DNA from: Chloroflexota bacterium
GTDB lineage: Bacteria > Chloroflexota > Dehalococcoidia > SM23-28-2 > RBG-16-64-32
NCBI GenBank assembly: GCA_005882715.1
Contig: VBEI01000005.1
Span: forward strand, 1 to 40,506
Length of the DNA stretch: 40,506 bases
Reading direction: 5' to 3'
The notes below the pieces were generated by a model. The model did no database searches, was not told the origin of the DNA, and saw only the letters and a program-made list of their open reading frames with translations. Numbering within the stretch: the first letter of the stretch is position 1; each line of letters starts with the position of its first letter. Shown here one piece after another: positions 11,894 through 36,998 of this stretch. The translations under genes and the position numbers were made by a program.

Positions 11894-11934
11894 TTGAGCA
11901 TCTCTGCTCAATTGACGGTAAGGCGTGCTATAAT
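11894..11934 (+). promoter_or_regulatory. Extended -10 promoter with upstream 7-4-7 palindrome
   Basis: TGCTATAAT at 11926-11934. Perfect inverted repeat TTGAGCA-N4-TGCTCAA at 11894-11911. Confidence 0.6.
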
Positions 11935-12049
11935 CCGCGTGCAAAGAACGAGGGTGCGCCTTCCCGACCCGGGGCGGTCCCGAAGGCCTGCGGAGCTGCT
12001 TCGTGGCTCCGCTCACCCAGTGCGCCTCTGCCTTTACCGGGGCTGTCCA

Positions 12050-13615
12050 ATGAGTGTAGTTGAAGGCGCCGGGCGCCGGCCCGGCGTGCGGACGACGAAA
12101 GCGGGCCTGCAGAGCGGCGTACCGAGCAGAGCTGGGCCGGTGCAACCGGACGCCAGCGGACAGCCGGCACCCTCAACGCTGGCCGTCGACTCTCCGTTCG
12201 GTTGGGCGGCGGCGCTCTACCGAAGCATCGTTGACACTTCCCCCGACGCGATCACGGTAACGACGATCGAGGGCAAGATAATTCTTTGCAACCAGCAAGC
12301 GGCGACGCTGCACGGCTTGCAACGAGTCGACGAGATGATCGCCCGTTCGGCCTGGGAGTTCGTGGCGGGAGAAGACATCGAGCGCGCCTCGCGGGATTTC
12401 CTGCGTATTTTGACGGAAGGTAGCATTCGGGACGTCGAGTATTCGCTGTTGCGTGCCGACGGCAGGCGGGTGCCCGTGGAACTTAGCGCATCGGCGATTA
12501 TTGATAAGGAGGGTAAACCGCGAGCGCTAATCAGCGTCGTTCGAGACGTTACGGAGCGGCGGACGGCCCAGGAGGCGCTGCGCCGGAGCGAGGAGCACTT
12601 CCGCCATCTAATCGAGAACGCGCCGGACTTGATCACGGTCATCGAGCCAAGCGGTGAGATTCGCTACCAGAGCCCGTCGGTACGACGGACGCTGGGGTAT
12701 ATGCCAGACGAGCTGGTAGGCACAAGCATCTGGCAAATTATTCATCCGGACGACCTGCGAGAGGTCGGGGATGCAATAGCACGAGGGCTCCTCGAGGTAC
12801 AGTCATCGGAATCGGGGCTGCCACACAAACTGCTTGTCTTCCGGGCGAGGCACAGAGATGGGCGCTGGCGCTACATGGAGGGGTCCGGCAAGGTGCTGAT
12901 GGAGGACGGCCGCGCATATGGGTTGATCAACTCGCGCGACATCACCGACCGGATCGAGGCGGAACGGGCGCTGGAAGCGAGCGAGCGGCGCAAGGCGGCT
13001 ATCTTAAAGACAGCTCTGGACGCAATTATCACCATCGATTACGAGAGCAAGATCCTCGAGTTCAATCCGGCGGCCGAGGCGATGTTCGGTCACGCTGCCG
13101 CCGAGGCGATAGGGAAATCGCTCGACGACCTGATCGTGCCACCTTCGCTGCAAGCCAAGCATCGGCCCGGGATGGAGCGCTACATGACAACCAGTGAGGG
13201 CCCGGTGCTGCGGAAGCGGATCGAGCTGACCGGGATGCGGGCGGATGGAAGTGAGTTTCCGGTGGAAATCGCCATCGTACCCATCGAGATGGCCGGGGCA
13301 ACGATTTTTACCGGCCACGTACGCGATTTGACCGAGCGCAAGCGAGCGGAAGAGGAGCTTCAGCGGGCCAGGGAGGAGCTGGAGAGTAGAGTCGAGCAGC
13401 GGTGGGGCGTGGAAGGTGCGTACGGACTGACTTTTCGCGAGCTGACCGTGTTGCACCTGGCGTCAAGCGGAAGGGCTGACAAGGAGATTGCGGCTACGCT
13501 AGGGATCAGCCCGCAGACCGTAAACAAACACGTGCAGCGGATACTGCACAAGATGGGCGCATCATCCCGCACAGAGGCGGTGGTGCGGGCGATCAAAGAG
13601 GGGGTCGTAGGGTAG
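12050..13615 (+). CDS. One-component regulator: 3x PAS + LuxR-type HTH
   Basis: Three PAS/PAC repeats ending RDVTE/RDITD/RDLTE. C-terminal LTFRELTVL..G..DKEIA..LGIS..TV..HV..I..KMG..SR. Start moved to ATG 12050 because the promoter lies inside the longer ORF call; the exact start is uncertain. Confidence 0.9.
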   Translation: MSVVEGAGRRPGVRTTKAGLQSGVPSRAGPVQPDASGQPAPSTLAVDSPFGWAAALYRSIVDTSPDAITVTTIEGKIILCNQQAATLHGLQRVDEMIARSAWEFVAGEDIERASRDFLRILTEGSIRDVEYSLLRADGRRVPVELSASAIIDKEGKPRALISVVRDVTERRTAQEALRRSEEHFRHLIENAPDLITVIEPSGEIRYQSPSVRRTLGYMPDELVGTSIWQIIHPDDLREVGDAIARGLLEVQSSESGLPHKLLVFRARHRDGRWRYMEGSGKVLMEDGRAYGLINSRDITDRIEAERALEASERRKAAILKTALDAIITIDYESKILEFNPAAEAMFGHAAAEAIGKSLDDLIVPPSLQAKHRPGMERYMTTSEGPVLRKRIELTGMRADGSEFPVEIAIVPIEMAGATIFTGHVRDLTERKRAEEELQRAREELESRVEQRWGVEGAYGLTFRELTVLHLASSGRADKEIAATLGISPQTVNKHVQRILHKMGASSRTEAVVRAIKEGVVG

Positions 13616-13631
13616 AATGTCCTGTCCGGCG

Positions 13632-13676
13632 TACCTAAAAATAGGTATTGACTAGCGGGCGAACGTAACCGACGAT
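13632..13676 (+). promoter_or_regulatory. NarL/LuxR-type 7-2-7 box abutting a sigma70-like promoter (copy 1)
   Basis: TACCTAA-AA-ATAGGTA (13632-13647), TTGACT (13648-13653), 17 nt spacer, weak -10 GACGAT. Confidence 0.6.
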
Positions 13677-13682
13677 AAGGGT

Positions 13683-13788
13683 GTCGCACCCTCCCTTGGG
13701 CAGCGGGCGACCCGTTCCGGTACGGGTTCGCCCAAATATGGCAGCGGGCGAGAACGGTTCCGGTATCGTTCTCGCCCAAATCTTTTGT
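13683..13788 (+). ncRNA. Candidate small RNA, two tandem hairpins with identical TTCCGGTA loops
   Basis: Direct repeats 13699-13737 and 13740-13781. Stems differ in sequence but both pair. Followed by TCTTTTGT. Ends are estimates. Confidence 0.5.
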
Positions 13789-14004
13789 GCCGTAAACTCT
13801 TTGTCGCTTCCCGTTTGATTCCTTTCGCCCGGGCGCCGGCAGGGGTTGATTTTCTTAACCAATCGAGATAAATTAACGGCGCGGTAGGCAATTGCCGTAC
13901 CAAAGACCCTGTGCGCGCAAGCCGCAAGGAGCGGCGCGGGGCGGTAATAGGTGCGACCTTCCAGCGCTGCTGGTATTTGTACCGTCGCAGACCGGAGCGA
14001 CGAA

Positions 14005-15981
14005 ATGAAAGAGCCAGAGCAGTCGCGCTCGCATAAGACAAAGGGAGCGAAGGGTCAGCTCCAGGAGCTGATCGATGTAATCGCGCTACGCGCGTCAACT
14101 GCCGGTGTGGCTGAAGTTCAGGGCATTGAAGATGCCCTGCGATTCGTAGTCGACCGCATATGCCGCCACACCGGCTGGCCGGTGGGGCACGTCTACATGC
14201 CGGCGCCCGATTCTGAGGATGAGTACGTGAGCGCAGGCATCTGGCACCTCGATGACGCCGCGGCGCTCGAACGATTCCGCAAGGCCACGGAGCAGACGCG
14301 GCTCAATGGAGACGTGGGATTACCCGGCCGGGTCCTGTCGTCGGGCAGACCTGCCTGGGTGGTTGACGTAGGGCAGGAGCCGGGCTTCCCCAGAGCCGCA
14401 GCGGCCAGGAGAGCGGGCCTTAAGTCGGCGGTCGCGTTCCCAATTCAGGCCGGCGAACGGACCGGGGCAGTGGTGGAGTTCTTCTCGCGGGAGGTGATGG
14501 AGGCTAACGAGCATCTGCTCGAGGCGATGGTGAGCATCGGCACGGAGCTGGGAAGGGCTTTCGAACGCAGCCGTGAGTTGTCGATGGCGCAGCAGGCGGC
14601 GGAGCTATATCGGAGCGTTGTAGAAACTTCGCCGGACGCCATTATGGTCACGGACCTGAATGGCAGGGTGCTGATGTGCAACCAGCAGGCGGCGGCCCAC
14701 CACGGCGCGGAGGGGCCGGAGGCGATGCTGGGTCTCAGCGGCTTCGATTTCGTGGCACCGGAAGACCGGGAGCGCGCCGTTGAGAATGCGCGGCGCACGC
14801 TAGAGACGGGCGGAGTTCGCAACGTGGAATATACATTGGTCCGGCGGGACGGCTCGCGCATCCCTGCTGAATTGAGCGCGTCGCTGATCCGGGACCCGCA
14901 GGGACAGCCGCGCGCCTTCATCGCTGTTGTGCGCAACGTTGCTGAGCGAAAGAAGTCCGAGGACGCGCTGCGCCAGTCGGAGGAGAAGTTCCGCACGCTG
15001 ACGGAGATGAATGCGGCGGCAACGTTCGTCTTCAAGAAGGGCCGCCTCGTGTACGCGAATTCGGCGGCGGCGGAAATGACTGGATACAGCGTCGACGAGC
15101 TTCTGACCATCGACCCATGGAAGACCGTACACCCCGACTTCCGGGAGAGCCTGGAAGAGGCCTGGCGCGCAACCTTTGAGCGACCCGACCAACCGCCGCC
15201 GAGTGGGTTCGAGGTGAAGATCGTAACGAAGGACGGTGACGAGCGCTGGGTCGAGTACAGCGCCGACCTCGTGGATTGGGAAGGCGGCAGGGGAGTCCTC
15301 GGGACTGCTTACGACGTGACGGAGCGCAAGCAGGCGGAGCAGGCGCTGCGCGACAGCGAGGAACGCTACCGGGTGATGTACCAGGACAACCCCTCGATGT
15401 ACTTTACCGTGGACGCGGCGGGCAGGGTGCTTTCCGTGAACCAGTTCGGCGCGGAGCAGCTGGGCTATGCGCCGGAAGAGCTGGCCGGCACGCCCGTGCT
15501 AGAGGTCTTCTACGATGAGGACAAGGAGGATATCGCCCGCCAACTCCAGCTGTGCATGGACACGCCGGGGAAGATGTCGCACTGGGAATGCCGCAAGGTG
15601 AGGAAGGATGGGGAAGTGGTCTGGGTCAAGGAGGCGGCGCGCGCGACTTTAGACGTCAACGGCGAACTAATCGTGCTCATTGTGTGTGAGGACATCACAG
15701 AGCGCCGGCGGATGGAAGAAGAGCTGCGGAAGGCGAGGGAGGAGCTGGAAGGCAAGGTCGAGCGGCAGATGCAGCAGGGACGGGCCTATGGCCTTACCTT
15801 CCGCGAGCTAACTGTCCTTCACCTGGTTGCGGCCGGAAACTCCGACAGGGAGATGGCTGATAAGCTCGGCATCAGCCCTTTGACGGTGAGCAAGCACGTC
15901 GCCAACATCCTGTCGAAGATGGGGGCGTCCTCACGCAGCGAGGCGAGTGCGCGCGCGGTGCGGGAAGCGCTTCTCGTGTAG
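14005..15981 (+). CDS. One-component regulator: GAF + 3x PAS + LuxR-type HTH
   Basis: GAF (GLPGRVLSSGRPAW..FPR...AFPI), three PAS domains, and the same AYGLTFRELTVLHL HTH as the upstream paralog. GGAG precedes ATG 14005. Confidence 0.92.
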   Translation: MKEPEQSRSHKTKGAKGQLQELIDVIALRASTAGVAEVQGIEDALRFVVDRICRHTGWPVGHVYMPAPDSEDEYVSAGIWHLDDAAALERFRKATEQTRLNGDVGLPGRVLSSGRPAWVVDVGQEPGFPRAAAARRAGLKSAVAFPIQAGERTGAVVEFFSREVMEANEHLLEAMVSIGTELGRAFERSRELSMAQQAAELYRSVVETSPDAIMVTDLNGRVLMCNQQAAAHHGAEGPEAMLGLSGFDFVAPEDRERAVENARRTLETGGVRNVEYTLVRRDGSRIPAELSASLIRDPQGQPRAFIAVVRNVAERKKSEDALRQSEEKFRTLTEMNAAATFVFKKGRLVYANSAAAEMTGYSVDELLTIDPWKTVHPDFRESLEEAWRATFERPDQPPPSGFEVKIVTKDGDERWVEYSADLVDWEGGRGVLGTAYDVTERKQAEQALRDSEERYRVMYQDNPSMYFTVDAAGRVLSVNQFGAEQLGYAPEELAGTPVLEVFYDEDKEDIARQLQLCMDTPGKMSHWECRKVRKDGEVVWVKEAARATLDVNGELIVLIVCEDITERRRMEEELRKAREELEGKVERQMQQGRAYGLTFRELTVLHLVAAGNSDREMADKLGISPLTVSKHVANILSKMGASSRSEASARAVREALLV

Positions 15982-16019
15982 TTATCAACACCAGCAAGAT
16001 TTTAAATAAGCCACAAAAA

Positions 16020-16065
16020 TACTAGAAATCAGGTATTTACCAGCCTCTGCGGTTCCCTAAATAAT
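16020..16065 (+). promoter_or_regulatory. NarL/LuxR-type 7-2-7 box abutting a sigma70-like promoter (copy 2)
   Basis: TACTAGA-AA-TCAGGTA (16020-16035), TTTACC (16036-16041), AATAAT (16060-16065). Confidence 0.55.
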
Positions 16066-16070
16066 TGAGG

Positions 16071-16132
16071 TACCCTCTTTTTGGGCTCCGCGGGCCGGGC
16101 GAGCCGCAACGCTTGGCCCGCTCCCTTTTTTT
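16071..16132 (+). ncRNA. Candidate ~60-nt small RNA ending in an intrinsic terminator
   Basis: Begins TACCCTCTTTTTGGGC, like copy 1. 12-bp stem 16090-16101/16110-16121 with 8-nt loop AGCCGCAA, then T7. Confidence 0.45.
16090..16132 (+). terminator. Rho-independent terminator
   Basis: GCGGGCCGGGCG / CGCTTGGCCCGC stem followed by TCCC-TTTTTTT. Confidence 0.8.
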
Positions 16133-16191
16133 ACAGGCCGTCTACCGAGGGGTTGTGACAGCCCGCGCTTCGATTTCATCTCGAGCGAGGC

Positions 16192-16197
16192 TATAAT
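16192..16197 (+). promoter_or_regulatory. -10 box for mutS
   Basis: Consensus TATAAT about 48 nt before the likely GTG start. Confidence 0.5.
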
Positions 16198-16244
16198 ACG
16201 TGCCAAAGCCGTCGGACCGAAGCGTTCAAGGTGCAGCCGGCCGC

Positions 16245-18848
16245 GTGACAACCCCGCTTAGACGTCAGTACCTGGAGATCAAGCGCCGCTACCCGCACGC
16301 CATACTTTTTTTCCGTCTCGGCGACTTCTACGAGACGTTCGATGAGGACGCGGAGACGGTGGCGCGGGAGCTGGAGATCACGCTCACCTCGCGGCCGGTG
16401 AGCAAGAATCAGCGCGTGCCGCTGGCAGGTATACCACACCACTCCCTGGATTCCCATCTCGGCAAGCTGATCGCGCGGGGCTACAAGGTTGCGATCTGCG
16501 AGCAGATGGAGCCCCCAAAAGGGGGCAACCTGGTCGACCGCCAGGTAGTGCGGGTCGTGACGCCGGGGACTCTTGTTGAGGAGAACCTGCTGGCGGGAGC
16601 GGCCAACAACTTCCTCGCCGCCTATGTGCCGGAAGACGGGCTGGCCGGCCTCGCGCATGTCGACGTTTCCACGGGCGAGTTCGGCTGCTTTCAGGCAGAG
16701 GCGGCCGAGGCTGCCCTGGAGATCGAGAGGCTGGCGCCAGCGGAGTTGCTGCTGCCGCAGGGAATCACGCCGCCGGGGAACTCAACAGGGACGCTGACGC
16801 CGCTGGGCGGACACGCCTTCGAGGCAGAGGCGGCGGAGGCCCGGCTCCTTTCGCACTTCGGGACGGCTTCGCTGGACGGCCTGGGCCTCGCCGGGCAGAG
16901 CCTGGCGGCGCGCGCCGCCGGAGCGATCCTGGAATACCTCGAGGAGAACCAGCAGGCGGTTCTAAACCATATCTCGCGGCTCGCCTACCAGGGCGACGCG
17001 GGCTTCATGACGGTGGACGCCAATACGGCCCGCAACCTCGAGCTCTTCAAGCCCCTCATACCGGATTCGGAGCACTCACCGTTGTTGGGTGTGCTGGACC
17101 AGACCAAGACGGCGATGGGAGCGCGACTGCTCCGGCGCTGGCTCGGGCGGCCGCTTCTCGACATAACCGAGATACAGAAACGCCAGGACGGTATCCAGCT
17201 GTTTGTGGACTCCGCGGTGCGGCGGACGAGGACGGCGGCCATCCTCTCGAAGATCCCTGACCTCGAGCGGCTCCTAGCCCGCGTCTCGACGGCAGCGGCC
17301 GGTTCGCCGGCGGCGAGCGTGCCGCGGGACCTCGTCGCGCTGGGGAGAGGGCTGGACGCGGTCGACAAGCTGAGGGAGACGGTCGAACACGATCCATCTT
17401 CCGGCTCCGGGAAGCACGTGGTGCGCGAGGAGATGATCGCGGGCCTGCACCCCTGCCGGGAGGTGGTTGAGCTCGTTGGGGCAGCGATGACTGACGATCC
17501 GTCCGCGGATGGACAGGTGATCCGGCCGGGCTTCTCGAAGGACCTGGACTCGCTGCGCGAGACGGCGCGGGACGCGCGGCAGTACCTGGCCGAAATGGAG
17601 CGCCGAGAACGCGAACGCAGCGGCATCAAGTCGCTCAAGGTCGGTTACAACCGCGTCTTCGGCTACTACATAGAGGTCTCGAAGGCGAACGCGCGGGCGG
17701 TCCCGGAGGAATACCAGCGGAAGCAAACGCTGGTTGGTGGCGAACGCTATACGACGCCAGAACTACAGGAGCACGAGTACAAGGTGCTCCACGCGCAGGA
17801 AGAGCAGCAGGAGCTTGAGCGATCGCTTTTGCGACAGGTCTGCTCGCAGGTCGCCGCGCACGGGCAAAGGATTCTCGAGACGGCAGCGGCCGTGGCGCTT
17901 GTGGACGTCTCCTGTGGGCTGGCGGAAGCCGCCGGCAGCTACGGCTACGCGCGGCCGGTCGTGGATGACGGCGATGCGATTGTGATCCGCGACGGCAGGC
18001 ACCCGGCCGTCGAGCGCATGATGCCGGTAGGCACGTTCGTGCCGAACGATACGCAGTTGTCGTGCTCTGATGCGCAGGTCGTGCTGCTCACGGGTCCGAA
18101 CATGGCCGGGAAATCGACGTACCTACGGCAGGTGGCGCTGATCGTACTGATGGCGCAGGTCGGCTCGTTCGTGCCGGCGAGGGAGGCGCGGATCGGCGTC
18201 GTGGACCGCATCTTCAGCCGCATCGGCGCACTGGATGACATCGCAGCGGGGCGGTCGACGTTTATGGTCGAGATGCTCGAGACGGCCGCGATGCTGCACA
18301 ACGCCACGCCACGCTCGCTGCTGATCTTCGATGAGATCGGGCGCGGGACGAGCACTTACGACGGGATGGCGATCGCGCGGGCGGTGGTGGAGTTCATTCA
18401 CAACCGACCGGAGGCGGCGGCGAAGACGCTGTTTGCGACGCACTACCACGAGCTGACGGAGCTAGCGGCGTTCCTGCCGCGCGTCCGCAACTACAACGTC
18501 GCGGTGGCGGAAGAGGAGGGCCGGGTGGTGTTCCTGCACCGCATTTTGCCCGGCGGCGCCGACCGCTCGTACGGCGTGCACGTCGCCCAGCTGGCGGGGC
18601 TGCCGCGCCCGGTGATCGCGCGGGCCCAGGAGATTCTGGAGCAGCTCGAAACGGCGAAACCACCGGCGGCGTCCTCCGCGGAACGAGCGGAGAGGGCGGC
18701 CCAGCTGCCGCTGTTCGGCCGGGAGGACGGGCTGCGCAAGGAGCTTTCGGCGCTGGAGGTGGACGGGATGACGCCGCTGGAGGCGATGACGAAGCTTTAC
18801 GAGCTGGCAGAAAAGGCGAGGGGGGAGGAAGGCCGAAGGATGAAGTAG
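16245..18848 (+). CDS. mutS: DNA mismatch repair protein MutS
   Basis: TPLRRQY, FFRLGDFYE, TGPNMAGKST, STFMVE, DEIGRGTS, ATHYHEL, SYGVHVA. C-terminal clamp motif QLPLF. Start placed at GTG 16245 (ORF track gives 16200). Confidence 0.98.
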   Translation: MTTPLRRQYLEIKRRYPHAILFFRLGDFYETFDEDAETVARELEITLTSRPVSKNQRVPLAGIPHHSLDSHLGKLIARGYKVAICEQMEPPKGGNLVDRQVVRVVTPGTLVEENLLAGAANNFLAAYVPEDGLAGLAHVDVSTGEFGCFQAEAAEAALEIERLAPAELLLPQGITPPGNSTGTLTPLGGHAFEAEAAEARLLSHFGTASLDGLGLAGQSLAARAAGAILEYLEENQQAVLNHISRLAYQGDAGFMTVDANTARNLELFKPLIPDSEHSPLLGVLDQTKTAMGARLLRRWLGRPLLDITEIQKRQDGIQLFVDSAVRRTRTAAILSKIPDLERLLARVSTAAAGSPAASVPRDLVALGRGLDAVDKLRETVEHDPSSGSGKHVVREEMIAGLHPCREVVELVGAAMTDDPSADGQVIRPGFSKDLDSLRETARDARQYLAEMERRERERSGIKSLKVGYNRVFGYYIEVSKANARAVPEEYQRKQTLVGGERYTTPELQEHEYKVLHAQEEQQELERSLLRQVCSQVAAHGQRILETAAAVALVDVSCGLAEAAGSYGYARPVVDDGDAIVIRDGRHPAVERMMPVGTFVPNDTQLSCSDAQVVLLTGPNMAGKSTYLRQVALIVLMAQVGSFVPAREARIGVVDRIFSRIGALDDIAAGRSTFMVEMLETAAMLHNATPRSLLIFDEIGRGTSTYDGMAIARAVVEFIHNRPEAAAKTLFATHYHELTELAAFLPRVRNYNVAVAEEEGRVVFLHRILPGGADRSYGVHVAQLAGLPRPVIARAQEILEQLETAKPPAASSAERAERAAQLPLFGREDGLRKELSALEVDGMTPLEAMTKLYELAEKARGEEGRRMK

Positions 18849-18966: not shown

Positions 18967-19926
18967 TTAGGCGACGCCAATTGAAGGGATTGTGTAGTCG
19001 CAGACCTGGTTCTTGCCGGTAAGTTTGGCTTTACGCAGAGCAGCGTCGGCGCGGTCGAGCAGAGTTGTCGGGCGGAGCTGGTTCATTGTGGCCGGCGAGA
19101 AGACGCCGATGCTCGCGGTGATCGCGATTCTGTGGCGACCCGCGTGCAGCTCCATCGCCGCGATGGCGAAGCGCAGACGTTCCGCGAGCTGCATTGCGCC
19201 TTCGAGCCCCGTCTCGGGGGCAAGAATGCAGAACTCGTCGCCGCCGTAGCGGGCCGCGATGTCTATCTCACGCACCGAGTTGCCGATCGCGATCGCTAAC
19301 TGGCGCAGGACAGAATCCCCCTCGAGGTGGCCGTGCCTGTCATTGACTTCCTTGAAATTGTCGAGGTCCAGCATGAGGCAGGATAGCGGGCTACCGTAAC
19401 GCTTGGCGCGGCGGCATTCCTTCTCCAGCGCGTCCCCCAGATAGTTGCGGTTGTAGAGGCCGGTGAGCGGGTCAGTAACGGCGCGCTTGTCCGTCTCCTC
19501 GCGCTGGCGCTCCTCCTCGGCTTCGAGGCGGGCCACTTCGAGCGCCTCGAGGATCGCGCGGGTAAGCGTCGTCGAGTTGATGCGTCCCTTGGCGCAGTAA
19601 TCGCGGGCGCCGCCGCGGATCGCGTCCTTGGCGATCAGCTCGTCGCCCTGGCCGGTAAGCATAATGACGGGCGGGACATTTTTCTTGCCGCTAATAGAGC
19701 GCAGGAAATCGAGCCCGTTCTCGCCCGGCAGGGAGTAATCGAGGAGGATGATATCGTAGCGTTCCGTCTCTAGGGCGCGCCGGCAGGACCTCGCAGATGT
19801 CACGTTATCCACTTCGAAGATAACTGTACTTTCCTCGAGCGCCGCCCGAACAAGGCCGACGTCTCCGGGGTTGTCTTCGACGACAAGCACGCGCAGGGTG
19901 GTCTTGGTCAACGTTTCCTCCCTCAC
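18967..19926 (-). CDS. REC-GGDEF diguanylate cyclase
   Basis: Receiver (VVEDN, LLDYSLP, MLTG), TDPLTGLYNR, RYGGDEF with RxxD I-site (REID). Confidence 0.95.
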   Translation of the reverse strand: MREETLTKTTLRVLVVEDNPGDVGLVRAALEESTVIFEVDNVTSARSCRRALETERYDIILLDYSLPGENGLDFLRSISGKKNVPPVIMLTGQGDELIAKDAIRGGARDYCAKGRINSTTLTRAILEALEVARLEAEEERQREETDKRAVTDPLTGLYNRNYLGDALEKECRRAKRYGSPLSCLMLDLDNFKEVNDRHGHLEGDSVLRQLAIAIGNSVREIDIAARYGGDEFCILAPETGLEGAMQLAERLRFAIAAMELHAGRHRIAITASIGVFSPATMNQLRPTTLLDRADAALRKAKLTGKNQVCDYTIPSIGVA

Positions 19927-20870
19927 ATTGCGGCAGCAGGGCGCGGCGGCTGTCCGCGCACCCGGTTCTTGCCTTCGACCTTTGCTTGCCTGAGCGCACG
20001 GTCGGCGCAGGCGAGCATCGTGTCGGGTGTCATCTCGTGTTCATCGCTCGAGGTGCAGGCGCCGATGCTAACGGTGATAGCTATCGCTCCGTCGCCGACG
20101 GCGAGGCCCTGTTCGGCGATCGAGTCGCAGATGCGCTCGGCGGCGAGCATCGCGGCGCTCTGGCTGGCTTCCGGCATGATGACGACGAATTCCTCGCCGC
20201 CGAAGCGGATCACCACATCGGTCTCGCGTACGCACTGGCTGATGGTCGCCGCGACCTGTTTGAGCGCGACGTCGCCGACGAGATGGCCGTGAATATCGTT
20301 GTAGGTCTTGAAGTCGTCCAGGTCGATCATCAAGCAGGCGAGGTCGCGCCGGTAGCGGCGGGCGCGGTTACACTCGCGATCGAGCGACTGCGCCATATAG
20401 CGGCGGTTATAGACGGCGGTCAGCTCGTCTGTGATGGCGAGGCGCTCCAGTTCCTCGCGTAGGCGCTTCTCCTCGCGGCCCCAGCGGTAGTTCTCGAGCG
20501 CCTGGTGGATCGCATGCGCGAGGATCTGGGAATTGATGGCGTTCTTGGGGAAGTAGTCGTAGGCGCCACTGTTCATAGCCTCCGCGGCGACGCGCCCGTC
20601 GCCCCAGCCGGTCAGCATGATCACCGGTGGCTGGTCACCGTCAACGTTCAGACGCCGAAGGAAGCTGAGGCCGTCCTCGCCCGGCAAGCTGTAGTCGAGG
20701 AGGAGCAGGTCGAATGGGATCGCGGCCATCCTGTCGAGGCATTCAGCCGTTGAGCGGACGCGCTCGAGGACGTAGTTGACCGCGGTGTACTTGCCGAGCA
20801 TTCGTTTGACGATCTCGGCATCGTGATCATTGTCCTCTACGAGAAGGACGCGCACTGATGTCCTGGCCAT
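19923..20870 (-). CDS. REC-GGDEF diguanylate cyclase (paralog)
   Basis: Receiver (LVEDN, LLDYSLP), TDELTAVYNR, RFGGEEF with RxxD I-site (RETD). Confidence 0.95.
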   Translation of the reverse strand: MARTSVRVLLVEDNDHDAEIVKRMLGKYTAVNYVLERVRSTAECLDRMAAIPFDLLLLDYSLPGEDGLSFLRRLNVDGDQPPVIMLTGWGDGRVAAEAMNSGAYDYFPKNAINSQILAHAIHQALENYRWGREEKRLREELERLAITDELTAVYNRRYMAQSLDRECNRARRYRRDLACLMIDLDDFKTYNDIHGHLVGDVALKQVAATISQCVRETDVVIRFGGEEFVVIMPEASQSAAMLAAERICDSIAEQGLAVGDGAIAITVSIGACTSSDEHEMTPDTMLACADRALRQAKVEGKNRVRGQPPRPAAAM

Positions 20871-33475: not shown

Positions 33476-33835
33476 GGGGACGAAAGGGTTCGACAGGGAA
33501 GGTTGAGCCCGGATTGCAGGCCGAGTTCGTCACCAACTCGAAAATCAGGTGGCGCTAAAAGTAACTGGCAGAACAAACCAGTACGCACTGGCTGCCTAAT
33601 CTAGGCTAGTCACGTTGGGTCCAGGCCTCACCCCGATGGGCAGGGCCCGACGCCGCAATGTCGGGGTGCTGTCTCTCCGACGCCGATGCAGAGAGACCTA
33701 AGACTTTTCGGCTGGCGCGGCGGCAAGTTAGCCGCGGACGTACGTCGCGCGAGATTGAAACGACGGCTAAGCCTGTAGGAGATTCGGGGAGGCTTTCCTC
33801 TGGACGAGGGGTTCGATTCCCCTCCGTCTCCACCA
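33476..33835 (+). ncRNA. ssrA: tmRNA (one-piece); tag (A)GRTNQYALAA at 33567-33599
   Basis: Acceptor stem GGGGACG/CGTCTCC with G3.U wobble, 3' ACCA, T-arm GAGGGG-TTCGATT-CCCCTC, GGTTCGAC near the 5' end, TAACT before the resume codon, tag ending YALAA-TAA. Close to smpB. Confidence 0.97.
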
Positions 33836-34250: not shown

Positions 34251-36998
34251 ATGAGTGACGTTGCACTACACGGACGCCTAATCGGCCGCGACCGGGAAAT
34301 GCGCGCTCTCGCGGATTTACTGGCCGGCATCCAGGAGCGCGGCGCTGCGGTCATAGTTCGCGGCGAGGCAGGCATCGGCAAATCCTCGCTGGTCGCAGCC
34401 GCGAGCGACAGGGCTCGAGAACGCGGAGTTCAGGTTCTGACGGCCGCGGCTGTTCAGTGCGAGACGCACCTTCCATTTGCGGGTCTGCACCAGCTTCTGC
34501 TCCCCATCCTTGCCGACGCCGATCACCTCCCGCCACCGCAGAGGCGAGCGCTTGATGCCGCGTTTGGAGTGGTCGACGAGAGGGCGCCCGAGCCCTTTGT
34601 TATCGCGCTGGCGACCCTGCACCTGCTTTCGGACGCCGCAGCCCGCGCCCCCCTGCTACTTATCGTTGAAGACGCCCACTGGCTGGACCGTCCGACGGCG
34701 GACGTCTTGACCTTCGTTGCCCGCCGTCTCGAGGGCGATCCCGTCCTTATGCTTGTAGCGATTCGCGACGGCTACGAGAGTCCACTCGATGCGGTCGGAC
34801 TGTAGGAGCTGCGCGTCGATCGCCTTGATGAGGCATCGGCTGCGGATTTGCTTGACGCGCACAACCCTGACCTGGATTCGGCCGTCCGAACTCGATTGCT
34901 CGAAGAGGCCGAGGGTAACCCATTGGCCTTAGTTGAGTTGCCGGCGGCTCTGAAAACCGACGACATTGCGGCGACGATGCACCCCGCATTGCTGCCGCTT
35001 ACCGCTCGCTTAGAACGGGCCTTCTCGGCGCGCGCATCAGAGTTGTCCGATTCAGCTCGTACCGCGTTACTGGTGGCCGCCGCGGACGATCAAGGGTTGT
35101 TAAGCGAAGTGCTGGCCGCGACGAGTATCGTCGACGGTCCAGAGCACGACGACGCAGTGCTCGCGCCGGCGATCGACGCCGGACTGGTCAAACTGGAAAT
35201 GCCGTACCTTCGCTTTCACCATCCTCTCGTCAGGTCGGCCATCTATCAGTCTGCGAGCATCTCCGAACGTGGGGCGGCGCACGCGGCGCTGGCTAAAGCG
35301 CTGACCCACGATCCAGACCGCCGGGCGTGGCACCTCGCTGCGGCCGCGACCGGACCAGACGAGAAAGTGGCGTTGGAACTTGACGAGGCGGCGGCCCGGG
35401 CGCAGCGGCGAGGGGCGACCGCCGTGGCGGTCGCGGCACTGGAAAGCGCAGCCCGGCTCAGCGACGACCCTACTCGCCGGGGCAGCCGGCTGCTACGCGC
35501 GGCCGAGCTAGCCTTCGAGCTGGGGCGACTCGACGTCGTGCTCCCTCTATTTCAAGAGGCGGAGCGGCTCGAACTGGCTCCCCTTGAGAGAGGGCGGATG
35601 ACGTGGATTCGGGAGATGATGGATCCTCGCAGCCTCGGTGACGTCGCGAGAGTACGTTCCTTAATAGACACCGCCGATCGTGCTCGCGAGGAGGGGGATA
35701 CTGATCTCGCGCTGAACCTCCTCATGCACGCAGCTGCCATGTGCTGGTGGACCGATCCCGGGAAGGAGGCGCGAGATAGCGCTGAGCGGGCTGGCTCTCT
35801 CGATAGCGACGCGAGGCTAGTGGTAATCCTTGCCTTCTCGGCGCCACTCGATCGCGGCCGGGTCGTAATCGATCACCTCGCACATGCGGCATCAGATAGC
35901 GGGAGAGATGCCTTATCCTCGGGATTGCTAGGCGGCGCCGCGACAATGATCGGCGCCTTCGATATCGCGGCCAGGTTCAACGCGGAGTCGGTCGCGGGCT
36001 TACGGGCGCAAGGCCGGCTGAACACTCTGGTTCGTGTGCTCTTCCACCATGCATGGTCGTCATTCAACTTGGCTGACTGGACGGTGGCCATTGCCGCGGC
36101 CGAGGAGGTCAGCCGCTTGGCTGAGGAAACCCGACAGCCAGACCTGGCGGCGGGAGCTCAAGTCGTCCAGTCGATGCTGGCAGCGGTGCGTGGAGAGACC
36201 GAAGTCGCGCAGGGTCTGGCTACGGAGGTCGAGCGGACTGTTCGGTCCAAGGGGTTTGGTTTCATGCTGGCCCTCGTTCAGATGGCGCGTGGCCTGACGT
36301 CCCTCTCTGGCGGGCTCCATGACGAGGCATATGGGCACTTGATTCGACTGTTCGACCATGCCGATCCCGCCTATCACCCCTTCGTTTGCGGATGGGGGAT
36401 GGCAGATCTCGCCGAGGCCGCGGTGCTCAGCGGAAACAGGGAGGCCGCACGGGCTCTCCTGGCAGAACAGCAGCCGATCGCTGATCAGGCCCCATCGACG
36501 TGGCTTCACATGGCTGTGCAATACGCCCGCCCGCTGCTGGCGGAGGACGAGGACGCCGAACCTTTATTCAAATCCGCCCTTGGTGCTGGCATGTCCCGGT
36601 GGCCTCTCTATTGGGCACGCTTGCAGCTGGCCTTCGGCATGTGGCTACGGCGTCAGCGACGCGCCGGTGAGTCACGAGTGTCGCTACGTGCCGCTCGTGA
36701 TGCGTTCGACGCTCTCGGCGCCCTCCCGTGGGGGGAGCGGGCCCGTCAGGAACTGCGCGCCGCAGGCGAGATGAGCCGTCGCCCATCGCCCGGCGCATTG
36801 GATTACCTCTCGCCTCAAGAGCTACAGGTCGCCTTGATGGCGGCCGAAGGAATGACCAATAGGCAGATCGGCCAGCAACTCTACCTGTCCCACCGAACCG
36901 TCAGTACCCACCTATACCGTATCTTCCAGAAGCTCGGGATCACTGCGCGGTCTCAGTTGCCTAATGCGCTGAGCACCCAGACCGTTTCCCCACTCTAG
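34251..36998 (+). pseudogene. MalT-like STAND ATPase-LuxR regulator interrupted by in-frame TAG at 34803-34805
   Basis: LIGRDRE, Walker A GEAGIGKS, Walker B VEDAHWLD, then GL*ELRVDRL continuing in the same frame to GNPLAL, FHHPLVRSAIY and C-terminal HTH LSPQELQVA..GMTNRQIG. Confidence 0.88.

Follow-up and report, generated by a model that had tools for sequence, protein, structure and literature searches.

Transcription factors of the PAS-LuxR family have been known until now for controlling antibiotic pathways in Streptomyces. A review (PMC9774167) gives their operator as a 16-bp palindrome, CTVGGGAWWTCCCBAG, situated at the -35 region of the promoters that they control. Here we describe two regulators of this family in an uncultured soil bacterium of the phylum Chloroflexota, together with the DNA lying behind their genes. 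The window, that is, the whole analyzed stretch of 40,506 nt (contig VBEI01000005.1, positions 1 to 40,506, assembly GCA_005882715.1), contains two PAS-LuxR genes, A and B, and each is followed on the same strand by the same ordered unit: a 16-bp palindromic box, a promoter-like element, a short C/U-rich motif (CU motif), and one or two GC hairpins with a U-run. Each unit is probably a gene of a small non-coding RNA (sRNA), located in the 3' region of the PAS-LuxR gene, activated by the regulator and carrying a seed that resembles the anti-Shine-Dalgarno (anti-SD) sequence, which would extend the PAS-LuxR family to a small-RNA target. The module of regulator, operator and sRNA is real, conserved and previously uncatalogued, and it looks like a new regulatory RNA circuit of conventional build.

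Among known RNAs, DapZ of enterobacteria is an sRNA embedded in a 3' untranslated region (UTR) and having its own internal promoter. MicL, also from enterobacteria (PMC4102768), is similar to the units described here in that it is encoded on the same strand as a protein gene, at whose 3' end it lies, shares the terminator with it and has a dedicated regulator-dependent promoter. Unlike MicL and DapZ, the RNA here is hosted by the gene of its own presumed regulator, with a promoter situated just past the stop codon, not inside the coding sequence; there is no homology between these RNAs. As for regulation, GacA/UvrY, members of the NarL/FixJ family, act on Rsm/Csr sRNAs, and AgrA acts on RNAIII, in both cases via palindromic upstream sites in exoprotein circuits. 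The regulator considered here differs from GacA/UvrY in being a one-component sensor and not a phosphorylated response regulator. Moreover, reading of the unit sequences and folds revealed no GGA-loop repeats, and as the GGA-repeat sponge architecture is absent, the RNA is not of the Csr/Rsm type. RNAIII and RsaE of Staphylococcus, RoxS of Bacillus and NfeR1 of rhizobia have C/U-rich seeds complementary to ribosome-binding sites, but these RNAs have several C-rich loops, while here a single CU motif adjoins the terminator. Since the principle of an sRNA that has an anti-SD seed and is driven by a regulator is well established, the surprise to specialists should be moderate. In the literature covered by our search, itself accessible in part, no regulatory RNA or transcription-factor regulon was found described for these uncultured soil Chloroflexota; the locus offers a complete, testable circuit from sequence alone, with sensor, operator, promoter, RNA and co-regulated exoprotein genes, in at least nine genera.

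Gene A (11894-13615, plus strand) encodes a protein with three PAS domains and a GerE helix-turn-helix (HTH) domain, and has no receiver domain according to Pfam. Its open reading frame (ORF) as listed begins with TTG, and the true start may be further in; the orthologues identified by protein search in two genomes of the same genus, G001 and G003 (genomes, genera and families are denoted by G, g and f, respectively), are about 560 amino acids long. Gene B (14005-15981, plus strand) encodes a GAF domain, three PAS domains and the GerE HTH; its ATG is at 14005, the frame being open from the GTG at 13951, and its orthologues in the same two genomes are 90% identical. Both proteins thus agree with the definition of PAS-LuxR one-component regulators (PAS together with a C-terminal LuxR/GerE HTH), and Response_reg is not among their Pfam matches. 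The nearest solved DNA-binding domains are those of the NarL/FixJ group, namely LiaR, VraR, DevR, GerE, NarL and FixJ. The Streptomyces regulators PimM and PteF likewise combine PAS with a LuxR-type HTH without a receiver domain. However, Streptomyces PAS-LuxR proteins are small and have one PAS domain, whereas the proteins considered here consist of 560-680 amino acids with three PAS domains (and GAF in the case of gene B). The targets are also different, being sRNAs and genes of exported proteins instead of polyketide clusters, and so is the phylum. The Streptomyces operators described in the review (PMC9774167) coincide with the boxes here in length, symmetry, A/T centre and placement at the -35; the outer bases are TAC...GTA here, and the inner ten bases of the Streptomyces consensus, GGGAWWTCCC, are matched only in boxes of genome G024.

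Box 1 (13632-13647, plus strand), a 16-bp palindrome of the form TAC-N10-GTA with an A/T centre, starts 16 nt after the stop codon of gene A and is conserved in the three other genomes of the genus (G001, G002, G003). It directly abuts promoter-like element 1 (13648-13676, plus strand), which comprises the -35 hexamer TTGACT (13648-13653), a 17-nt spacer and the -10 hexamer GACGAT (13671-13676). Box 2 (16020-16035, plus strand), 38 nt after the stop codon of gene B, is a 16-bp palindrome with the centre GAAATC, identical in G001 and G003, and belongs to the same subclass as the boxes found ahead of exported-protein genes (see below). The adjoining promoter-like element 2 (16036-16065, plus strand) has the -35 hexamer TTTACC (16036-16041) and a -10-like hexamer within 16058-16065; the promoter of this unit is flagged by the promoter scan (two sites found in the region, 1.0 expected). 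The first-pass annotation of the window, made from the letters and a list of ORFs, had reported the two inverted repeats at 13632 and 16020 with their abutting -35-like hexamers, as well as the succession of five elements (box, -35, -10, CU motif, hairpins with the U-run), and all of these have been found in their places at both units; its match of 12 out of 14 positions between the 14-mers spanning the box edge and the -35 is also correct. The combined pattern of box and -35, TAC-N10-GTATTKAC, has two matches in the window (mean 0.00 in 100 shuffles) and six in the whole assembly of the window (G000; 2.02 Mb, 74% complete), where the bare TAC-N10-GTA occurs 246 times on both strands. The boxes have the 7-2-7 layout of NarL-type sites and their TAC/GTA ends, but unit 2 fits the NarL heptamer consensus poorly.

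The arrangement is conserved across relatives. Gene B was searched for at the protein level in 40 related genomes, and the 3' flanks of the homologues were then read; the flank is intact for 20 PAS-LuxR genes, all from loci fetched by protein similarity alone. A perfect TAC...GTA box with an A/T-rich centre lies within 260 nt of the stop codon in 16 of the 20, and the remaining four have boxes with five (two genes) or four (two genes) of the six end bases, the chance expectation being about 0.016 boxes per 260-nt flank, as calculated from the 246 sites in 4.04 Mb of strand. The full order of gene A, unit 1, gene B, unit 2 and mutS is found in G001 and G003, while in G002 gene A and unit 1 are present at the end of a contig. 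A single PAS-LuxR gene is found in other genera of the family, with the box and TTGAC 4-40 nt past the stop codon, followed by a 17-nt spacer and a GAGCAT-like -10; a stretch of variable sequence separates these from the CU motif with its strong hairpin, behind which TATAAT and mutS often come. In particular, the -35, the 17-nt spacing and the xAxxAT-type -10 (mostly GAGCAT) are conserved over nine genera. The box abuts the -35 in most genera and is located 11 bp further upstream, i.e. by one helical turn, in genus g12; in family f6 it abuts TGGACA, and a protein gene, not an RNA, comes next. Genome G044 has two tandem units of box, promoter and RNA behind one regulator gene; the unit is portable. 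The first-pass annotation had named the loss of the box, the -35 and the ACCCTC motif behind homologues as the outcome that would speak against its proposal, and all three are kept downstream of homologues in other genera. Among 65 genomes of the order, the box followed by TTGAC yields 39 matches, compared to nine for the reversed control, in 19 genomes, and within the family of the window it is found in 17 of the 42 other genomes. Palindromes of the form TACGC...GCGTA also abut TTGAC in small, complete, distant genomes of family f52 (G118, G141, G267, G341, G239).

Predicted small RNA 1 (13683-13787, plus strand, about 105 nt), with its start predicted from the -10 and its extent from the fold and the terminator scan, comprises the CU motif (13686-13701), two hairpins (13705-13733 and 13746-13777) and the U-run (13781-13786). 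Predicted small RNA 2 (16070-16132, plus strand, about 60 nt; fold and terminator scan) consists of the CU motif (16070-16086), a terminator hairpin with an 8-nt loop (16090-16121) and a run of seven T (16126-16132). The folding z-scores are -4.2 and -3.3 for units 1 and 2, respectively, and the terminator scan flags both, each ending as an intrinsic terminator does. Hairpin loops of 8 nt, claimed in the first-pass annotation for both units, are confirmed in unit 2 only, as RNAfold draws 6-nt loops in both hairpins of unit 1. The CU motif pattern matches twice in the window, with 0.20 matches expected and two of 100 shuffles reaching two, and occurs nowhere else in the 2.02-Mb assembly.

In total, 22 units have been located in 16 genomes, and in each of them a strong hairpin immediately follows the CU motif, which is itself either unpaired or part of a weak loop. 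In an alignment of ten units the motif is nearly invariant, and the 15-bp hairpin shows compensatory changes at nine of its 15 pairs; 91.7% of cells are paired, compared to 78.2% in shuffles (none of 500 reaches this value) and at most 45% when the pairing partners are slid. RNAalifold yielded no consensus for all 21 sequences of motif plus hairpin, because the hairpins are out of register, the ten-sequence subset being usable. A covariance model of the motif and the hairpin only (R1) detects the RNA in 14 of the family's 43 genomes, including five copies outside its training set; since R1 misses both units of the window and those of their genus, this count is a lower bound. Three of the new copies (G022, G051 and G045) all have a LuxR gene, the box, TTGAC and a GAGCAT or GAACAT -10 upstream, and as these upstream elements are not part of R1, the three copies are the nearest to an independent test. 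By eye and by model together, the RNA is present in at least 24 of the 43 genomes and in nine of the 17 genera of the family.

The other two new copies (G047 C139, locus L101, and G019 C149, locus L102) have a variant form. This short variant, consisting of the CU motif and the terminator with a degenerate or GC-centred box, is also seen at locus L024 (G024 C2:218-336). In G047 it adjoins an integrase-like ORF, and in both G047 and G019 a small ORF, by eye that of an HTH protein, is located downstream of it, which suggests a copy carried by a mobile element.

Comparison with the covariance models of Rfam 15 gives no match to the RNA, in line with the first-pass annotation, which had not recognized it as a known family. 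At gathering thresholds the only match in the window is the transfer-messenger RNA (tmRNA); in the region of the units at E-values up to 10 there are two partial matches at chance level, far under gathering, and in nine homologous loci at E-values up to 0.1 there is nothing on the units. The RNA is put forward as a candidate new family for Rfam. The 3' end of the 16S rRNA (G000 contig C9) coincides with the commonest form of the CU motif at nine of ten positions, and thus the RNA carries an anti-SD-like stretch. Elsewhere in bacteria, sRNAs blocking ribosome-binding sites have seeds of this type, and the CU seed here is conserved and unpaired in the folds. Ribosome-binding sites of genes preceded by the box (loci L001, L032, L033, L039, L040 and G000 C157) are often extended by GUGC or GUAC, an extension pairing with the RNA motif and not with the 16S rRNA. 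The corresponding pattern, G[GA]GGT[GA]C just before the start codon, occurs in six of 11 box-preceded genes compared to 1.8-3.5% of 2271 crude starts in G000; as the motif was defined post hoc and a single genome serves as the background, this is a lead and does not count as evidence.

The box is not confined to sRNA units. Together with TTGAC and a better -10, it is located 40-120 nt upstream of protein genes whose products have basic-then-hydrophobic N-termini; these products are termed exported here on the basis of N-terminal hydrophobic stretches judged by eye. There are two such sites in G000 (C3:8196 and C157:2655), four in G024, two in G008 and one in each of G018, G012 and G009. Pfam names four of nine products, a trypsin-like protease with an InlB B-repeat, a subtilase, a PD40 propeller and a TSP3-repeat protein, and assigns no family to the other five. 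Two subclasses of the box can be distinguished: the A/T-only centre is found mostly before the RNA, as in unit 1, while the GAAATC/GATTTC centre precedes exported-protein genes and the RNA of unit 2. As the genus has two regulators, they may divide the labour between them or form a cascade. Neither the box regulon nor the lack of a separate terminator of the regulator genes had figured in the first-pass annotation.

A GATTTC-subclass box is also observed at G000 C127:9691-9707 (locus L003) and at G003 C76:229-249 (locus L036), apparently the same locus, close to contig ends or runs of N; the adjoining -35 reads TTGACG in G003 and TGTATG in G000, so the promoter may have been lost in the strain of the window. 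A fifth site of box and TTGACA in G000 (C15:20220-20240, L002:6221-6241) follows genes of tRNA-Leu and tRNA-Cys and a terminator; 3' of it there is neither a clear ORF nor the CU motif, with a run of N starting about 500 nt downstream.

In genera g17, g3 and g14 a homologous transcript has an extra domain of about 125 nt (G024 C11, L028:1688-1820; L025, L041, L042, L111-L122). The domain has 44 predicted pairs with a closing 17-bp helix, is 79-95% identical between genera while the flanks are divergent, and occurs in 14 copies in nine of the 65 genomes of the order; Rfam gives no match to it at E-values up to 0.1. A compensatory change is seen in only one of the 44 pairs, and therefore the structure has no covariation support so far. 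In genus g3 this long form is mostly found behind an ORF of an FtsX-like permease, with a different promoter-like element and with the CU motif and the terminator still 3' of the domain.

According to the mechanism that we propose, a dimer of the LuxR-type HTH would bind the 16-bp palindrome abutting the -35, with the centre of the box near -43.5, and would assist RNA polymerase at a promoter with a near-perfect -35 and a weak -10. The predicted product is a transcript of about 60-105 nt ending at the GC hairpin and the U-run. As there is no terminator between the stop codon of the regulator and this hairpin, the regulator mRNA most likely ends at the same terminator, and would carry the RNA in its 3' UTR. 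The unpaired CU stretch, which is the only invariant feature of the RNA, would then most likely pair with the Shine-Dalgarno regions of mRNAs and alter their translation or stability. The box would also drive the exported-protein genes, so that the putative regulon would be small and consist of exoproteins and one or two riboregulators. The analysis itself shows the anatomy of the units, their conservation and non-coding character, the lack of an Rfam match and the box regulon, whereas binding by these particular regulators, activation as opposed to repression, the position of the transcription start, the base-pairing mode and its targets are inferred.

Several results weigh against this mechanism. 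The consensus promoter scanner does not flag the promoter of unit 1, which it misses because the -10 is weak. A plain search of the assembly for extended complements of both seeds with up to four mismatches identified no extended target, returning the units themselves and scattered matches with three to four mismatches (28 rows for unit 1 and two for unit 2); besides, an anti-SD-like seed would fit many mRNAs, which makes any claim about targets weakly specific. Six GerE-type HTH proteins are encoded in G000, so another of them could read the box. Outside the order, a scan of the class (301 genomes) shows no enrichment of the box with the -35 (63 matches compared to about 64 for the reversed control), the terminators of several genera have no clear U-run, and the long form in genus g3 is mostly away from LuxR genes and boxes, so the RNA family is not strictly tied to a PAS-LuxR regulator. 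The RNA data consist of assembled contigs, which are blind to starts, ends and strand. In favor of the mechanism, contigs of RNA runs do cover unit 1, one of them (13540-13694) reaching into it from the 3' part of gene A and another extending over 13700-13905; a further contig (13726-14557), which counts against it, bridges the terminator of unit 1 into gene B, as would also be expected from read-through or from DNA carry-over. Run X17, only guessed to be RNA, has a 124-nt contig on 13683-13791; the contigs of X17 and of X19 (also guessed to be RNA) are mostly 90-95% similar to the window and are therefore from relatives. Runs X15 and X16 have no contig over unit 2, which says nothing on its absence. 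The stretch of the window as such is found in many soil metagenomes and, in part, in two metatranscriptome runs.

Four other explanations can be considered. It is unlikely that the units are not genes in their own right but serve just as 3' UTR and terminator for the mRNAs of the regulators, or as an attenuating 5' leader of gene B and mutS, or both, with incidental promoter hexamers. Such an explanation would agree with the common strand of the units and both neighbors, the lack of a separate terminator behind the regulator genes, the contigs bridging gene A with unit 1 and unit 1 with gene B, and the weak -10 of unit 1. Against it stands the conservation, over nine genera, of the -35, the type of the -10 and their 17-nt spacing between the stop codon and the RNA. 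Moreover, mutS has its own TATAAT past the terminator in ten of 11 genomes, gene B has its own promoter-like element, and the unit is also found ahead of unrelated genes and as a tandem pair. Translation of the units into small proteins, whose N-termini would come from the conserved motif, is hardly credible. ORFs of 45 and 43 amino acids with similar first residues do pass through the units (13681-13818 and 16065-16196), so the statement of the first-pass annotation that no plausible coding sequence lies inside either unit holds as regards conservation and not as regards the presence of ORFs. The GTG start of the unit-1 ORF is absent in G001 and G003, and the frame of the unit-2 ORF in these genomes differs from that in G000; no start or frame over the CU motif is conserved across 16 units, two of which have no ORF over it at all, and the ORFs cross the terminator hairpins. 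On these grounds the units are not coding.

The remaining two explanations concern the partners of the box and of the RNA. The box could be an operator of a different protein of the LuxR/NarL family, e.g. a response regulator, or an operator for repression, with adjacency reflecting co-regulation; we regard this, too, as unlikely. The six GerE HTH proteins in an assembly that is 74% complete, the existence of two box subclasses (A/T-only and GAAATC-type centres) and the resemblance of the palindrome ends to NarL-type half-sites speak for another reader, while the box adjoins a PAS-LuxR gene in all 20 homologues from two families, and the published operators of PAS-LuxR regulators are equal to it in length, symmetry and placement at the -35 (PMC9774167). 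Moreover, the window provides an internal contrast: its third GerE-HTH protein (34848-36998; 716 amino acids, with a different C-terminal tail) has neither the box nor the RNA unit 3' of its gene. Somewhat less probable still is an RNA that binds a protein or a ligand, with the CU stretch as a protein site and the long form as the archetype. The 44-pair structure of the long domain, 79-95% identical over three genera with diverging flanks, its 14 copies in nine of 65 genomes and the lack of a specific mRNA target in the plain complementarity search are in its favor; however, the units of the window have no such domain, only one of the 44 domain pairs is compensatory, and the element that all copies share is a short unpaired motif by a terminator, the usual layout of base-pairing sRNAs.

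Starting from the preferred reading, a regulator-activated sRNA with an anti-SD-like seed, one may extend it to a family-wide modular riboregulator, in which a PAS sensor would drive an RNA mimicking the anti-SD end of the 16S rRNA and tuning mRNAs led by Shine-Dalgarno sequences, with a feed-forward loop and a sensor domain; we consider this extension doubtful, if conceivable. If it is true, the tuned mRNAs would include those of the exported proteases and surface proteins switched on by the same box, which would close the feed-forward loop, and the nearly invariant domain of about 125 nt acquired in some genera could bind a ligand or a protein, making the transcript a sensor RNA under a sensor protein.

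As for the origin of the gene pair, genes A and B are about 42% identical, and they are not sisters in a tree built by a quick maximum-likelihood run from 25 C-terminal regions (190 residues): gene B groups weakly with single-copy mutS-linked genes of other genera, while gene A belongs to a long-branched clade elsewhere. Given this identity and placement, the pair is not a recent tandem copy. Hence the suggestion of the first-pass annotation that gene and RNA had been duplicated together is not supported in the sense of a simple tandem event, the more so as in G044 the unit has been duplicated without the regulator.

Among the neighboring features, the promoter-like element ahead of gene B (13846-13874, plus strand), identified by eye and unscored by the scanner, consists of TTGATT, 17 nt and TAAATT, and is kept in G001 and G003. 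The ORF of mutS (16192-18848, plus strand), with its own TATAAT at 16192-16197, lies outside the unit. mutS is directly downstream of the RNA in 11 genomes of six genera, the downstream gene in G051 being a different one, and TATAAT is kept between the terminator and mutS in ten of the 11 genomes, with G014 having TATACT; the relatives with TATAAT followed by the N-terminus of mutS are G001, G003, G017, G012, G008, G010, G044, G022 and G045. Residues of MutS common to relatives begin at the GTG at 16245, not at the first GTG of the ORF (16200). Beside mutS, on the minus strand (18967-20870), two adjoining ORFs of 319 and 315 amino acids have GGDEF/GGEEF-type motifs after receiver-like N-termini and look like tandem diguanylate-cyclase response regulators. 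The tmRNA gene found by the Rfam search is located at 33476-33835 and has the tag peptide GRTNQYALAA.

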